Below the pieces are notes generated by a model. It was not told the origin of the DNA. It ran no database searches and was given only the letters and a program-made list of their open reading frames with translations. From a virus (taxonomy: Duplodnaviria; Heunggongvirae; Uroviricota; Caudoviricetes): DNA of 64,000 nt. Position 1 is the first letter of the stretch. Each line of letters opens with the position of its first letter. The stretch lies in IMG/VR virus record IMGVR_UViG_2541047873_000001. One strand, written 5' to 3'. Position numbers and translations under genes: made by a program. Positions 1,158 through 59,315 of the stretch are shown piece by piece.

Positions 1158-1234
1158 GATGGTGTAGCTCAGTAGGATAGAGCAGCAGCCTTCTAAGCTG
1201 TCGGTCGGTGGTTCGAATCCACCCACCATCGCCA
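1158..1234 (+). tRNA. tRNA-Arg (anticodon TCT)
   Basis: Cloverleaf by eye: 7 bp acceptor gatggtg/caccatc, D-arm gctc..gagc, anticodon loop cttctaa, T-arm ggtgg-ttcgaat-ccacc, encoded CCA. Confidence 0.8.
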
Positions 1235-1239
1235 ATTTA

Positions 1240-1326
1240 GGGGAGTTAGTCCGTAGGGGTAGCGGGGTAGACTGTAAATCTACTGTCATTGCGACTCGGA
1301 TGGTTCGACTCCATCACTCCCCACCA
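1240..1326 (+). tRNA. tRNA-Tyr (anticodon GTA), type II
   Basis: Acceptor ggggagt/actcccc, anticodon stem gtaga/tctac with loop ctgtaaa, long variable arm, T-loop ttcgact, encoded CCA. Confidence 0.75.
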
Positions 1327-1330
1327 AATT

Positions 1331-1406
1331 GCCGGTTTAGCTCAGTTGGTAGAGCGCCTGCCTTGTAAGCAGGATGTCAGCGGTTCGAGTCCGTTAACCG
1401 GCACCA
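1331..1406 (+). tRNA. tRNA-Thr (anticodon TGT)
   Basis: Acceptor gccggtt/aaccggc, D-arm gctcagttggtagagc, anticodon stem cctgc/gcagg with loop cttgtaa, T-loop ttcgagt, encoded CCA. Confidence 0.8.
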
Positions 1407-1414
1407 ACACAACA

Positions 1415-1488
1415 GGTAAGGGTATTTTGCGACGTCGGAGATCGCCGAGCTTGGCAGAGGGTTCGAATCCCTACGAAGTACCCTTACC
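1415..1488 (+). ncRNA. tRNA-like element (degenerate tRNA or structured small RNA)
   Basis: Perfect 10 bp closing helix ggtaagggta/tacccttacc enclosing a D-arm-like hairpin (gcga..tcgc) and a canonical T-arm (aggg-ttcgaat-ccct), but no anticodon arm can be fitted. Confidence 0.3.
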
Positions 1489-1594
1489 GTTGTGATGAAT
1501 GCACAGGCTGATGTGCCGCAACTACAGTAGTGCGCGCTTTGCGGGGCTTGCTACAACCCTGTGTCGGAGTTCAGCACCGACCATCACAATCACT

Positions 1595-1681
1595 GGAGAG
1601 TAGGGAGCATGGTGCTCAAGCGGTCTTGAAAACCGTCCCATTGCGCAAGCGATGATGGTTCGATTCCATTACTCTCCGCCA
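1595..1681 (+). tRNA. tRNA-Ser (anticodon TGA), type II
   Basis: Acceptor ggagagt/actctcc, anticodon loop cttgaaa, long variable arm, T-arm atgg-ttcgatt-ccat, encoded CCA. Confidence 0.75.
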
Positions 1682-2110
1682 GCGCAACGTTAAGAGTATT
1701 TGGCTAATTAAGCGAATGCCGGAAGCAGAACCGGATCACCAAATGCGTACAGGCGTCATCGCCGCCCAGTCAGCCAAATGCTCTTACCATTGCGGTGAAT
1801 GCGGCTAAGCGCACGCGGAACAGTTAAAACAGTAAAGGTGGTCTTTTTACTGGCGTAACGAGAATCCATAAGTGATCCGGCGTTAATTGTTAACTGGTTA
1901 ACGTCACCGGGAGGCACCCGGCACCGCAACCTAACAGCAATGGCGTTTTGTCTTAAAAGGTGGCTGCAAGTGATGGATTTTTGGGCGTTTGCCGATAAAA
2001 ACCCGGAGTGGACATTATTGTTTCTGCTGGTGGTTGCATACGGGGTAGAGCAAGCGGCAAAAGCCTTACGCGGTTCTGGCAAAAAGCGTAAGCGTAATTA
2101 ACAGTAATCT

Positions 2111-2186
2111 GGCCCTTTAGCTCAGTGGTTAGAGCGGGCGACTCATAATCGCACGGTCACCGGTTCAAGTCCGGTAGGGGCCACCA
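2111..2186 (+). tRNA. tRNA with CAT anticodon, most likely tRNA-Ile2 (lysidine type) rather than Met
   Basis: Acceptor ggccctt/aggggcc, D-arm gctcagtggttagagc, anticodon loop ctcataa, T-loop ttcaagt; body closely resembles E. coli ileX-type tRNA; P1 also encodes a tRNA-Ile. Confidence 0.7.
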
Positions 2187-24987: not shown

Positions 24988-25592
24988 TTTTCTAACATTT
25001 TAAGTTGAATTATGAGATCCACCGTTGTACATTCACAACCGATTGGTACACCGGTCAACTTTTTGAGACAAACCGTTTGGTTTTTCGTATGATTGCCGCC
25101 GCCATACCAATGGCGGTGCAATATAGGTGGCTGAAAAGCCCCCGTTGACTCACGGTGTTCCAGCCTTTATTGCGCCGCCACCAGACCGTGGAACAGTCGA
25201 TGGCGGCTCCGAAAGCAAGGAGTCACTACACTATGAACAGCTACTGTCTTTTCCCATCACTCGTTGTCCGCCACTCACGCGATAATCTGCATTCTTTACT
25301 CGCGCTGGGGGTGTCAAAATGACCGTTCGCTACCTCAACTTTCAAATCCAGAACATCACTGGCGGTTGCTATGACTGGTTTGTCACTCTCGGAAAAGAAG
25401 TGATCACCGGGAAGCTGGATGAAGTGAAAGCTAAAGCAATGGCCTACGCCTGCAAGCAAGCCCAAAAGAAGAAAAGAAAAGCATAAGAAAACACACAGTT
25501 GCGCCCTGGCATTATCGTGGGGTATATTTCTACGGCACCTTAGAAAAACGGGTGCCGGGATTGGAACCCCGGATAATGCAAAAGGCGACACA

Positions 25593-25616
25593 GACGCCGA
25601 AAGCGTCTTTTTTTGT
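25593..25616 (+). terminator. rho-independent terminator
   Basis: gacgc-cgaaa-gcgtc hairpin followed by T7. Confidence 0.7.
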
Positions 25617-25639
25617 GTCATGCCATCGCACAGCCATGC

Positions 25640-25790
25640 GTAGCGTTTAGCTCAGAGATCAATGGTAGTGCTGGCTGGGCTGCCGAAAGGCAGGCCGGTT
25701 CCCTTTTGCGCCGGTAGTTCCAACCCAGTCAGTGCTACCGCCATTGAGATTGGAACCTCACGCGGTAGCTCCTTAAATTAGCAAAAGGAG
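25640..25790 (+). ncRNA. c4-like structured regulatory RNA candidate
   Basis: No ORF; 16 bp stem (25664-25679 with 25724-25739) enclosing hairpins; repeated GGTAG/CTACC elements complementary to the region just ahead of the downstream RBS; position matches P1 c4. Confidence 0.35.
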
Positions 25791-25799
25791 GCTGCCAAT

Positions 25800-26015
25800 A
25801 TGGCTACTATCCCTACCCCAACTCATTCTGAATTTATCTGGCGTTTCTATTCCTGCCAAAAACACCTCTATATCTGCGTAATGGCTGCTACCGAAGCAGA
25901 GGCGCGCTCATACCTTCCCGAAGAACCCTGTATTTTTGCTGCTCGCTTCACTCTTGATGCGATGGAGATCCTCAATTACTGGAATCTGCCGATGAACTGC
26001 GTGGAGGTGCACTGA
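25800..26015 (+). CDS. small protein in Icd position
   Basis: 71 aa ORF with strong RBS (aaaggagg) overlapping the antirepressor start, as icd overlaps ant in P1; no sequence-level call. Confidence 0.3.
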   Translation: MATIPTPTHSEFIWRFYSCQKHLYICVMAATEAEARSYLPEEPCIFAARFTLDAMEILNYWNLPMNCVEVH

Positions 26016-26956
26016 TGAATCTGTCCATCTCTCAAAAAGCGACAATGACCAGCATTGAGATCGCGGAACTGGTGGGAAGTCGTCACTCTGATGTTAAACG
26101 CAGCATCGAAAGACTTGTTGCTAAAGGAGTTATCCAACATACGCCATTGGCTACAGTTGAGAATAATCAATCACTTAGCCCTAATAAATACACAAAAGCC
26201 TATTTCTTCGAAGGCGAACAAGGCAAGCGCGATAGTATTATCGTCGTCGCGCAGCTCTCTCCGGAATTCACCGCCCGGCTGGTGGACCGCTGGCGCGAAC
26301 TGGAGAATGTCAGGGGACCGTTAAAATCAAAAGCCGAAATCCTGGCTGAAATGGCGCAAATGCATCTTGAGCATGAACGCAGGATCAACGCCGTAAATGC
26401 CCAGGTAGCCGAGGTATCGGCACAAGTGTCCAGGGTCACCGAAACACTTGAGCAGATCAAGAAAGGCAATATTCCAGAAGGCTACATTGGCTATCGCCAG
26501 TTGGCGGCAAAATGCGGCCTGACTGAAGCCAAATGCCGCAACCTGGTCAACGCTTACCGGATACCCACTGATACGCATGAGTTTTTAACTCCCGACGGTT
26601 TGCTTGCGCGACGCTCCATTGTGGCCCTGGCCCCCTTCCGGAAAGCCTTTAAGCAGGTTATGTCGGAGGCAGAACCACGTAACAAACGCTGGTATCATCC
26701 CAGGATGGGGCTATTTCAGGCCATTCACCATCCTGTGCCTGAAAGTCCAAAGGCAAACCTGTCGTTGCATACCGCCAGAGAGAAGATTAAAACAGGGTAT
26801 GCAACCGTATGCCGTCGAGCATCCTGGCCTGAAAGTGTCTGGGTATGGCCCGAAAGAGGCTCACGGAAAAACTGGCGCACCATTCGCGACGGCAAGATCT
26901 GTGCGATTGATTTACAGCCAGAAGATGTAGCAGCGACCGACTGGATTGTTAGTTAA
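26015..26956 (+). CDS. antirepressor, Rha-family N-terminal domain
   Basis: 313 aa; N-terminal MTSIEIAELVGSRHSDVKRSIERL typical of Rha-type phage regulatory proteins; hairpin terminator at about 26964-26986. Confidence 0.65.
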   Translation: MNLSISQKATMTSIEIAELVGSRHSDVKRSIERLVAKGVIQHTPLATVENNQSLSPNKYTKAYFFEGEQGKRDSIIVVAQLSPEFTARLVDRWRELENVRGPLKSKAEILAEMAQMHLEHERRINAVNAQVAEVSAQVSRVTETLEQIKKGNIPEGYIGYRQLAAKCGLTEAKCRNLVNAYRIPTDTHEFLTPDGLLARRSIVALAPFRKAFKQVMSEAEPRNKRWYHPRMGLFQAIHHPVPESPKANLSLHTAREKIKTGYATVCRRASWPESVWVWPERGSRKNWRTIRDGKICAIDLQPEDVAATDWIVS

Positions 26957-27012
26957 TAGATTTGCCCCGGTCATGCCGGGGCTTTAACTACTAAGTGACC
27001 GGACACAGCAAA

Positions 27013-33649: not shown

Positions 33650-34413
33650 CATCCAACAAAACTCTCCTGTCCCGCATTGGCGAGTGGCAGACAACGCGTA
33701 CTGGAAAATTCCAGACAACTGGTCTGGAAAGAGTGGATAACGCTTTTGCTACGCTAATCAGCGACATTTTTTCTGACGTAACGCTGGTGGAACCAGCAAA
33801 AGAAGAAAGGCGCTTTGCATCATTCCTGAGTCGCCCACCAGCGGAGCGTGTTTATGTTGCCCGTTTTGATAACGCGGTCGAGTTCCTTAAAGCGGTTCGC
33901 CGTGCTAATGCCGGGCAAGGGAGAAAGCCAGAGAATCCGAACATTAATCGCGATGCGCTCCCTCTGATTAATATCTCGCGCTCAATGGATATCAGCTATA
34001 TCAACAATGACCAGCAGATAGACCGCAAAAGCTGTGATCACTTCTGCGAACCTGACAGCGGTATGCCTTTAGTAGCCCTGGAATACACCCAGGCAAATCT
34101 GACGTATGACGTTACGTTAATGGCGACGGATAAGGCGACCATGAGTCTGATGTGTAATTCGCTAGGAGCACGTCTTCGCTTGATGGCAGGAACGCAGTTT
34201 GAAGCAACAACCCCGCTGGTACGAGTACCCGTCCCGCTAATTTGCGCGGTTCAGGATGCTAAAGACATCAGTTTTACTGATGTTTCAGCCCCAATTGGGG
34301 AAGAGCGTATTTATGCTGCACAAACGGCAATTAGTGTTATAGCAGACGTGATCACCGCCTGGGAGCTGGACGCGAAACGAATTATTACTGAAACCTCTCT
34401 GAGAATGGGGTAA
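33646..34413 (+). CDS. hypothetical structural protein
   Basis: 255 aa, translationally coupled. Confidence 0.45.
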   Translation: MTSNKTLLSRIGEWQTTRTGKFQTTGLERVDNAFATLISDIFSDVTLVEPAKEERRFASFLSRPPAERVYVARFDNAVEFLKAVRRANAGQGRKPENPNINRDALPLINISRSMDISYINNDQQIDRKSCDHFCEPDSGMPLVALEYTQANLTYDVTLMATDKATMSLMCNSLGARLRLMAGTQFEATTPLVRVPVPLICAVQDAKDISFTDVSAPIGEERIYAAQTAISVIADVITAWELDAKRIITETSLRMG

Positions 34414-43485: not shown

Positions 43486-43812
43486 ATGACTAAAAATACT
43501 CGTTTTTCCCCCGAAGTCCGTCAACGGGCAGTCCGTATGGTTCTGGAAAGTCAGAGCGAATATGACTCACAATGGGCGACAATTTGTTCCATTGCTCCAA
43601 AGATTGGCTGTACGCCGGAGACTCTGCGTGTCTGGGTTCGCCAGCATGAGCGGGATACCGGGGGCGGTGATGGAGGGCTCACCACCGCTGAACGTCAGCG
43701 TCTGAAAGAGCTGGAACGTGAAAATCGTGAACTGCGCCGCAGTAACGATATCCTTCGCCAGGCTTCCGCTTATTTTGCGAAGGCGGAGTTCGACCGCCTC
43801 TGGAAAAAATGA
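43486..43812 (+). CDS. IS629 transposase OrfA
   Basis: 108 aa HTH/leucine-zipper protein, recognised as IS629 OrfA by eye. Confidence 0.9.
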
Positions 43813-44699
43813 TGCCACTGCTGGATAAGCTGCGTGAGCAGTACGGGGTCGGACCGCTATGCAGCGAACTGCATATTGCCCCGTCAACGTATTACCACTG
43901 TCAGCAACAGCGACATCATCCGGATAAACGCAGTGCCCGTGCGCAGCGCGATGACTGGCTGAAGAAAGAGATACAGCGCGTATACGATGAAAATCACAAG
44001 GTATACGGTGTGCGTAAAGTCTGGCGTCAGTTGTTACGGGAAGGTATCAGAGTGGCCAGATGCACTGTGGCACGTCTCATGGCGGTTATGGGACTTGCCG
44101 GTGTTCTCCGGGGTAAAAAGGTCCGTACGACCATCAGCCGGAAAGCCGTTGCCGCAGGCGACCGCGTAAACCGTCAGTTCGTGGCAGAACGACCTGACCA
44201 GCTGTGGGTGGCTGATTTTACTTACGTCAGCACATGGCGGGGCTTCGTCTATGTGGCGTTCATCATTGATGTGTTTGCCGGATACATCGTGGGGTGGCGG
44301 GTCTCATCGTCCATGGAAACGACATTCGTGCTGGATGCACTGGAGCAGGCGTTATGGGCCCGTCGACCGTCCGGCACGGTCCATCACAGTGATAAAGGTT
44401 CTCAGTATGTATCGCTGGCCTACACACAGCGGCTTAAGGAAGCCGGATTACTGGCATCAACAGGAAGTACAGGCGACTCGTATGACAACGCGATGGCGGA
44501 GAGCATCAATGGTCTTTACAAAGCGGAGGTAATACACCGTAAGAGCTGGAAAAACCGTGCAGAAGTGGAACTGGCCACACTCACGTGGGTGGACTGGTAT
44601 AACAATCGACGATTGCTGGAAAGGCTGGGCCATACTCCTCCGGCAGAAGCAGAAAAAGCTTATTATGCTTCCATCGGAAACGATGATCTGGCAGCCTGA
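43809..44699 (+). CDS. IS629 transposase OrfB (DDE catalytic domain)
   Basis: 296 aa in the -1 frame relative to orfA, overlap at the A-rich aaaaaatg region consistent with programmed frameshifting. Confidence 0.9.
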
Positions 44700-58940: not shown

Positions 58941-59315
58941 ATGCTTTATGAGATTGATGCCCGCCTTCAGACAAACGAGAGCGGGGTGGTGATCGCTGAA
59001 GGCGACACAAACGCCTGGATAGCCCGACTCGATGAATGGCTACGGACACCAAATGGCAGCGTTTACGGATTGCCGTCATGGGGGAATCCGATGGAGGAGT
59101 TCAAACACGAACCCTTCGGTTCTGATACGTCACACATTGTTGAAGTGGCGATTGAAGCGCGAATGATGACGAAGCTACAGCAGGACTTACCAGGGCTTGG
59201 ACTCCAGGCGATCCGCTGCGCGACTGTCTCTGAAGACCAGTTACTAATTAGCTTCCAGGCAAAAGGAGGCACCGTGAATGTTGTTATGCAGAAAGATAGC
59301 GGAGATACAGCGTGA
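58941..59315 (+). CDS. baseplate protein candidate
   Basis: 124 aa directly after the tape-measure gene. Confidence 0.4.
   Translation: MLYEIDARLQTNESGVVIAEGDTNAWIARLDEWLRTPNGSVYGLPSWGNPMEEFKHEPFGSDTSHIVEVAIEARMMTKLQQDLPGLGLQAIRCATVSEDQLLISFQAKGGTVNVVMQKDSGDTA

Follow-up and report, generated by a model that had tools for sequence, protein, structure and literature searches.

A c4 antisense RNA gene and its probable immI-type immunity module in a D6-like plasmid prophage

The window analyzed here, a 64,000-nucleotide (nt) stretch of DNA from a virus of the Caudoviricetes (IMG/VR record IMGVR_UViG_2541047873_000001), contains a gene for an antisense RNA of the c4 family between an intrinsic terminator and a homologue of the phage P1 gene icd, which overlaps the gene for a candidate anti-repressor (Table 1). 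The surroundings are those of a D6-like plasmid prophage. Positions 25300–27000 are 89.7% identical to Escherichia phage D6, with 96.7% identity over 25500–26015, and positions 25000–27000 are 98.1% identical to a 91.7-kb non-mobilizable plasmid of E. coli; 456 plasmid records match in all. The window and D6 share the gene order ref, small open reading frames (ORFs), icd-like gene and anti-repressor gene. The GenBank records of D6 annotate an Icd-like protein and an anti-repressor at the locus and no RNA feature, and the RefSeq plasmid NZ_CP104667.1 likewise carries no c4 RNA feature there. The presence of c4, icd, and an antirepressor (kilA) in the ImmI-related region of D6-like plasmids has been reported (PMC6799933), and the RNA family, the type of operon, and its occurrence in these plasmids are already known.

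An Rfam scan of the whole window identified the c4 gene as a full-length match to the C4 antisense RNA family (RF01695, model positions 1–87), scoring 76.7 bits against a gathering threshold of 45 (E = 3e-13). A preliminary description, made from the sequence alone, had called this region c4-like and proposed folding and covariation analysis as a check, and the family match and the compensatory changes found in relatives bear out the assignment. The long stem in that description is also present: positions 25664–25679 pair with 25724–25739 to give a closing stem of 16 pairs, including three G-U pairs, that encloses hairpin 1 (25680–25693) and hairpin 2 (25694–25715). The family structure is both the minimum free energy (MFE) and the centroid structure of the RNA, with a predicted energy of −46.4 kcal/mol and a z-score of −5.46, and none of 200 dinucleotide shuffles folded as stably. 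In a structure alignment of 64 distinct sequences, 99.7% of the positions in the fold were paired and 18 of the 27 pairs were altered on both sides; when the partners were slid by one to three columns as a control, 28–50% of cells paired. Family membership and fold are established by these data. Alignment to the annotated c4 of P1 (10344–10420) predicts a mature RNA of 79 nt (25664–25742) that ends in an acceptor-like stem and a GCCA tail, and the tRNA-like acceptor stem and tail would fit 5' processing by RNase P.

Six short elements connect c4 with the sequences on either side of it. The contacts that define the c4 mechanism are those of a' with a2 and of b' with b2, neither of which was seen in the preliminary description; a1 and b1, upstream of c4, repeat the sequences of a2 and b2. 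Their conservation was followed in a set of c4 loci obtained by scanning IMG/VR with a hairpin-2 pattern, which gave 120 loci and, after addition of phage records, 85 distinct c4 loci, among which 28 a'/b' combinations occur. Full complementarity to the cognate a' or b' was found for a1 in 77 of the 85 loci, for b1 and a2 in 83 each, and for b2 in 84, compared with full matches in 1–5% when a' and b' were taken from a locus of different specificity. The small hairpin that displays a2 is 99.5% paired in relatives. The complementarity of all six elements and their co-variation are observed directly in these alignments. Whole-molecule duplex energies were not clearly better than those of shuffled sequences (at least equaled by 62 of 300 shuffles for c4 with the IsrK-like RNA described below and by 17 of 300 for c4 with the leader), and were not used as evidence.

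The comparison with D6 provides a natural example of this co-variation. The two sequences differ at 17 of 516 nt, and six of these differences are accounted for by two positions, each changed in a1, a', and a2 alike, so placed with P = 2e-5 for location alone. The a specificity is TTGAGAC in D6 and TTGGAAC in the window in all three copies; the pair a1/a' reads TTGGAAC/GTTCCAA here and TTGAGAC/GTCTCAA in D6, and complementarity is kept throughout. The anti-repressor gene of D6 is also only 84% identical to that of the window, and other D6-like plasmid prophages are known (e.g., pYU39_89). P1 and P7 differ in immunity specificity. Co-variation of this kind is the pattern expected if the short a and b elements set immunity specificity, as in the comparison of P1 with P7 (PMC12197685, PMC6906374).

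Table 1. Features of the c4 locus and its upstream neighbor in the window
Feature	Coordinates	Strand	Basis or context
c4-2, divergent c4-like RNA	25106–25185	+	Rfam C4 match (39.5 bits); fold z-score
Two small overlapping ORFs 3' of c4-2	25234–25486	+	29 amino acids, 25234–25322; 55 amino acids, 25319–25486
Promoter-like site	25499–25528	+	Read from the sequence; inferred
IsrK-like/c4-a1b1 small RNA	25535–25613	+	isrK (RF01394) match
a1, TTGGAAC	25561–25567	+	Loop of second IsrK-like hairpin; complementary to a'
b1, GCAAAAGG	25578–25585	+	Single-stranded spacer of IsrK-like RNA; complementary to b'
Intrinsic terminator	25592–25613	+	Terminator scan and alignment to isrK model
c4 antisense RNA gene	25658–25745	+	Rfam C4 match; fold z-score; covariation
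b', CCTTTTGC	25702–25709	+	Hairpin-2 loop of c4
a', GTTCCAA	25717–25723	+	Single-stranded junction between hairpin 2 and 3' strand of closing stem
c', GCTACCGC	25734–25741	+	Outer 6 nt of 3' strand of closing stem and 2 nt of GCCA tail
a2, TTGGAAC	25750–25756	+	Loop of small GAG/CTC hairpin; target of a'
c, GCGGTAGC	25762–25769	+	Between a2 and b2; complementary to c'
b2, GCAAAAGG	25781–25788	+	Overlaps icd Shine-Dalgarno sequence AAGGAGG (25785–25791); complementary to b'
icd homologue, 71 amino acids	25800–26015	+	Similarity to P1 Icd; NF033153; phrog_1426
Anti-repressor candidate, 313 amino acids	26015–26956	+	Phage_pRha N-terminal domain; phrog_63

The elements a1 and b1 lie in a second small RNA gene immediately upstream, which matches the Rfam family isrK (RF01394) with 62.5 bits against a gathering threshold of 50; an overlapping match to c4-a1b1 (RF03163) scored 22.4 bits, below its threshold of 46.7. 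In the IsrK-like RNA a pair of hairpins is followed by a single-stranded spacer and then by an intrinsic terminator, and its a1 and b1 are putative decoy sites. The terminator (stem 25592–25608 followed by TTTTTTT) is the strong one of the preliminary description, which had taken it simply as preceding the c4 region; it is in fact the end of the IsrK/c4-a1b1 RNA that carries the putative decoys. A promoter-like site in front of this RNA consists of a −35 element TTGCGC (25499–25504), an 18-nt spacer, and a −10 element TATATT (25523–25528), with a predicted start near 25535, and its geometry matches that upstream of isrK in the Salmonella prophage Gifsy-1 (TTGACA-18-TATATT-6-A). A consensus scan found no separate promoter between the terminator and c4, which would fit transcription of c4 by read-through of the terminator.

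Downstream of c4, the 71-residue product is 63% identical to P1 Icd (E = 6e-28) and matches NCBIfam phage_ICD_like (NF033153) with 49.4 bits, as well as phrog_1426. The TGA of this ORF (26013–26015) overlaps the ATG (26015–26017) of the next gene. The homology of icd and the stop/start overlap substantiate the P1-like c4-icd-ant arrangement that had been proposed. The 313-residue protein encoded by the next gene matches Pfam Phage_pRha in its N-terminal part (33.6 bits) and phrog_63, "anti-repressor Ant" (1e-57), and its D6 orthologue is annotated as an anti-repressor. P1 Ant1 has an ANT/KilAC domain instead, and BLASTP between the two proteins returned a short stretch only (E = 0.039), not a similarity; the anti-repressor is of a different family, as the preliminary description had it. 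A gene of the Rha type 3' of c4 is unlike P1 but common (Stx phages, phiP27), and is not unusual in itself. The first seven codons after b2 (MATIPTP, 25800–25820) are common to unrelated downstream genes, which are icd-like here and encode Rha-type regulators in Stx phages, which places the exchange boundary of the regulatory module within the beginning of the coding sequence.

Collectively, these features indicate that the region is an immI-type immunity module of a D6-like plasmid prophage centered on the c4 antisense RNA, a reading to which we assign a probability of about 85%. The P1 and P7 immI regions provide the closest parallel. The P1 c4 belongs to the same Rfam family (68.8 bits); the order a1, b1, c4 (b', a'), a2, b2 on the icd Shine-Dalgarno sequence, icd, and overlapping anti-repressor gene is the same, with similar spacing; Icd of these phages is homologous to the icd product of the window; and in both P1 and the window a terminator-like hairpin ending in TTTTTGTGTC separates b1 from c4. 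The differences from P1 lie in the a and b elements (TTGACAG and GTTAGTG in P1; TTGGAAC and GCAAAAGG in the window), in the anti-repressor (ANT/KilAC in P1, Rha-type in the window), in the a1b1 part, which scores as c4-a1b1 in P1 and as isrK in the window, and in a second c4-like module that lies directly upstream in the window. Among the IMG/VR loci, two of the P1 type (L031 and L072) have a2 TTAGCAG and b2 GTACATGA in place of P1 TTGACAG and GTTAGTGA, a natural specificity variant of the P1 type that is possibly P7-like.

The P1 c4 RNA is processed from the operon transcript to ~77 nt, RNase P making its 5' end, and its action involves Rho-dependent polarity; the P1 GenBank record annotates c4 as a separate RNA, with a2 and b2 as its binding sites that repress translation of icd and ant. 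By analogy with P1 and Gifsy-1, the module would work as follows. The promoter near 25499–25528 would drive a transcript that mostly ends at 25613, yielding the short IsrK-like RNA with a1 and b1, and read-through transcripts would hold c4, the leader, icd, and the anti-repressor gene. The c4 RNA (~79 nt, 25664–25742) would be cut from the read-through precursor, with RNase P as the candidate enzyme for the 5' end, and would pair through b' in the hairpin-2 loop and a' in the junction with b2 and a2 in the leader. icd would then go untranslated because b2 covers its Shine-Dalgarno sequence, and the anti-repressor would also not be made because its start overlaps the icd stop. Without anti-repressor, the prophage repressor would stay active, and a1 and b1 on the short RNA could titrate c4 and relieve the block. 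Processing of c4, translational repression with coupling, and the decoy role are suggested by the precedents in P1 and Gifsy-1, and repression of anti-repressor synthesis by c4 and its part in immunity specificity by the layout and the three-way co-variation.

Four points weigh against this interpretation. No plus-strand promoter scored above the threshold of the consensus scan, and the site at 25499–25528 falls below it. The P1 C1 operator consensus ATTGCTCTAATAAATTT had no match anywhere in the window with up to three mismatches allowed; a D6-type repressor may use a site other than the P1 C1 operator. Family names are the only indication that the 313-residue protein may act as an anti-repressor. 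Finally, the authors of the study on the Gifsy-1 isrK-orf45-anrP system attribute their results to a switch that operates in cis on the mRNA and includes translation of an upstream ORF, not to a trans-acting c4 (PMC4825925).

The Gifsy-1 system bears directly on the locus studied here. In the Gifsy-1 sequence (L128, 34075–34330, minus strand), Rfam places isrK at 34316–34240 and C4 at 34214–34131 (69 bits), so that an IsrK RNA, a C4-family RNA, and an anti-repressor gene follow one another as in the window; the promoter geometry, the terminator, and the position of a1 in the loop of hairpin 2 are also shared. Gifsy-1 differs in lacking icd, in that a frame starting in c4 reaches the anrP start codon, and in being a lambdoid integrated prophage, not a plasmid prophage. 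In that system, IsrK supplied in trans raises anrP translation more than 100-fold, the effect depends on the start codons of orf45, and two alternative structures (A and B) were described; read-through of the isrK terminator gives rise to STnc1160, which is stable, and compensatory mutants G28A/C162U and G31A/C159U were made (PMC4825925). Activation in trans and binding of Hfq are known for IsrK of Gifsy-1 only. The first orf45 AUG (+107 in the numbering of that paper) is the AUG that opens the 5' strand of c4. Residues G28 and G31 map into a1 (TTGGCGT) and their partners C162 and C159 into a' (ACGCCAA) of Gifsy-1, and therefore the study shows a1-a' pairing experimentally. c4, P1, and RNase P are not mentioned in PMC4825925, IsrK and c4 are handled as unrelated in a review from 2025, and the connection between IsrK and P1 c4 was not found stated in the searchable literature. 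Gifsy-1 IsrK and P1 c4 appear to belong to one and the same machinery. orf45 and STnc1160 coincide with a C4-family RNA, and IsrK may be the a1b1 decoy of a c4 system.

Transferred to the window, the Gifsy-1 proposal would have the c4 sequence act mainly in cis, as an inactive fold in the long mRNA that the IsrK-like RNA opens in trans, so that the ORF from AUG 25662 is translated and brings about downstream translation with no processed repressor. The Gifsy-1 data on anrP induction, start-codon dependence, and alternative structures are in its favor, and the window has the same AUG and an open frame (25662–25781, 39 amino acids) that in 42 of 63 relatives runs through 53 codons or more without a stop; an alternative helix described below also shows that competing folds of the precursor are possible. 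However, the 39-residue frame ends at 25781, which leaves 19 nt to the icd ATG and makes coupling to icd unlikely, and variability is flat over its codon positions (0.63/0.65/0.69). The RNA is a full-length, high-scoring member of a family whose P1 member has an RNA annotation of its own, with a2 and b2 as binding sites, and Gifsy-1 has a stable processed RNA, STnc1160, at the corresponding position. A purely cis-acting switch is considered unlikely on this balance, although it is the best-placed of the alternatives to c4 acting as an antisense RNA.

Two further systems resemble the module. Stx-converting and other lambdoid phages (e.g., F039, phiP27) have isrK and C4 RNA genes, annotated as such in LC710660, and share the leader, the first codons (MATIP...) of the downstream gene, and a Rha-type downstream protein, but they have no icd between c4 and the regulator and carry other a/b specificities. 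In the immunity system of satellite P4 (seqA/seqC), the CI RNA is cut from the leader of the very operon under its control and pairs with two complementary sequences flanking it, and SeqA was called a structural homologue of IsrK (PMC4825925). By the same description, which is the basis of the likeness to P4, CI causes premature transcription termination, not blocking of a ribosome-binding site.

The preliminary description had drawn attention to a different complementary pair, gctaccgc in c4 and gcggtagc ahead of the next gene, designated c' and c here. The pair is real, lies where it was placed, and co-varies, but it is not the known repressing contact, which is made by a'/a2 and b'/b2. By chance, ~0.06 complements of 8 nt would be expected between an 80-nt RNA and a 50-nt leader. 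In relatives the c'/c helix is 96.7% paired and six of its eight pairs are altered on both sides, among them the column pair 83/109, which is A-U in 38 rows and G-C in 25 and whose column 83 lies outside the c4 closing stem. RNAalifold applied to c4 with its leader picks the helix, and it recurs at the same position in Gifsy-1-type copies, in the second c4-like RNA of the window (c4-2), and in a very divergent locus (L053) with unrelated sequence there. It excludes the outer part of the c4 stem and would put a2 in its loop. In the window, c is also the 5' strand of a hairpin in the MFE fold that sequesters the Shine-Dalgarno sequence (c and TCCTT paired with AAGGA and GCTGCC). This hairpin was rejected as a family-wide feature, its inner helix being 62% paired across relatives and its outer part varying mostly on one side; in other lineages the partner of c is another segment close by.

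That c'/c pairing is itself the antisense contact repressing the next gene would agree with the exact and strong 8-bp complementarity (−16.3 kcal/mol as an isolated duplex), with the double changes at six of eight pairs including column 83/109, and with the constant position of the helix in divergent subtypes including L053. In the folded c4, however, c' is hidden within the 16-bp stem, in its outer 6 bp, and c sits 16 nt 5' of the Shine-Dalgarno sequence (25785–25791) of ATG 25800 and does not cover it. The three contacts cannot share one antiparallel duplex because the order a2-c-b2 in the mRNA is not collinear with b'-a'-c' in c4. Cognate pairing exceeds non-cognate pairing only modestly (7.56 versus 6.54 of 8), the helix is mismatched in P1 and absent from two subtypes, and in the window c prefers the partner adjoining the Shine-Dalgarno sequence. 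A direct repressing role for c'/c is accordingly given a low probability, below that of the cis-acting switch. We conclude that c'/c is a genuine alternative pairing under selection, formed in the precursor or in the complex of c4 with the mRNA, and that it competes with the outer part of the c4 stem. No description of the helix was found in the searchable literature, which excludes the older P1 papers.

The same stretch had been described as having no ORF. Only ORFs of 30–39 codons overlap it, and the one at 25662–25781 is annotated as ash, without a coding signature: the RefSeq entry WP_071526433.1, "ash family protein," lies exactly over the c4 gene in the 98%-identical plasmid. It is very improbable that the region encodes a small Ash family protein and not an RNA gene, since against that annotation, a PF10554 score of 33 bits (cut-off 26), and a frame open in most relatives stand the lack of any third-position excess of variation, amino acid sequences that differ widely while double changes keep the base pairs, the absence of an NCBIfam match, and a Pfam Ash match in phiP27 that spans both the isrK and C4 RNA genes. 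The protein-coding reading of the 39-residue ORF was rejected on its flat codon-position variability, and the Ash Pfam family may have been built from translations of RNA genes. These observations concern 25662–25781 (plus strand) in the window, 963–1082 in L129, and 1448–2107 in L006.

About 550 nt 5' of the main c4, the divergent RNA c4-2 heads an upstream tandem module. Searches of the window by tblastn and blastn found no second icd and no second full c4 copy, only c4-2, which scores below the gathering threshold (39.5 bits, E = 5e-4) and has a fold z-score of −4.46. It has its own elements, b' TTGACTC and a' TGTTCCA, with targets a2' TGGAACA (25191–25197) and b2' GAGTCA on the Shine-Dalgarno sequence of ATG 25234, and a c-like TGGCGGC. 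The two small ORFs that follow, of which the 55-residue one matches phrog_7786 (function unknown), are the targets of c4-2 presumed from complementarity. No change in c4-2 or its leader was seen in D6 or in ten IMG/VR relatives with variable flanks. In the window, and not in D6, the a' of c4-2 could pair with a1 and a2 of the main module as well. Prophage contigs in IMG/VR commonly carry two or three c4 genes in tandem at intervals of ~650 nt (L014, 9709–11108; also L010, L073, L021, L043, L035, and L076), and the second copies often have a different hairpin 2 and a different specificity.

A more elaborate arrangement, a three-RNA circuit with a folding switch, is put forward tentatively and as somewhat less likely to be right than wrong. 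In its first layer the IsrK-like RNA would be an anti-antisense decoy for c4, which implies that Gifsy-1 orf45 is c4. The second layer would be a choice of fold: with the 5' strand of the stem paired to c', and c to the sequence adjoining the Shine-Dalgarno sequence, c4 would be made and the Shine-Dalgarno sequence locked, whereas with c' paired to c, c4 would be unmade and a2 exposed. In the third layer, c4-2, which shares the a core, could cross-talk with the main module in the window and not in D6.

Some observations concern other parts of the window. A second copy of GCAAAAGGAGG, the sequence formed by b2 and the Shine-Dalgarno sequence, at 59259–59269 (plus strand), was rejected as a real site; it lies inside a tail/baseplate gene with no nearby a2 and no RNA-family match, and is probably due to chance, though it is a potential off-target of c4. 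Positions 43767–43883 (plus strand) match the ALIL pseudoknot over its full length (Rfam RF01497, 120 bits); IS3-family insertion sequences use this element for frameshifting, which locates an insertion sequence in this part of the prophage. Five clustered tRNA genes (Arg-tct, Tyr-gta, Thr-tgt, Ser-tga, and Met-cat) occupy 1158–2186 (plus strand), and a partial STnc100-like match, below its gathering threshold, lies at 1791–1928.

The c'/c helix, the three-site specificity switch relative to D6, c4-2, and the identity of Gifsy-1 orf45 with c4 seem to be undescribed in the searchable literature. As a practical matter, NZ_CP104667.1 carries a doubtful Ash family protein over c4. It is RNAs of the c4 type that control the dormancy of P1-like and D6-like plasmid prophages, as well as of many Stx and Salmonella prophages, and the short a and b sequences would set which related phages are mutually immune. 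Given the 2-nt switch that separates the three a copies of the window from those of D6, cross-immunity is predicted to be altered among plasmid prophages of a kind often present in clinical E. coli.

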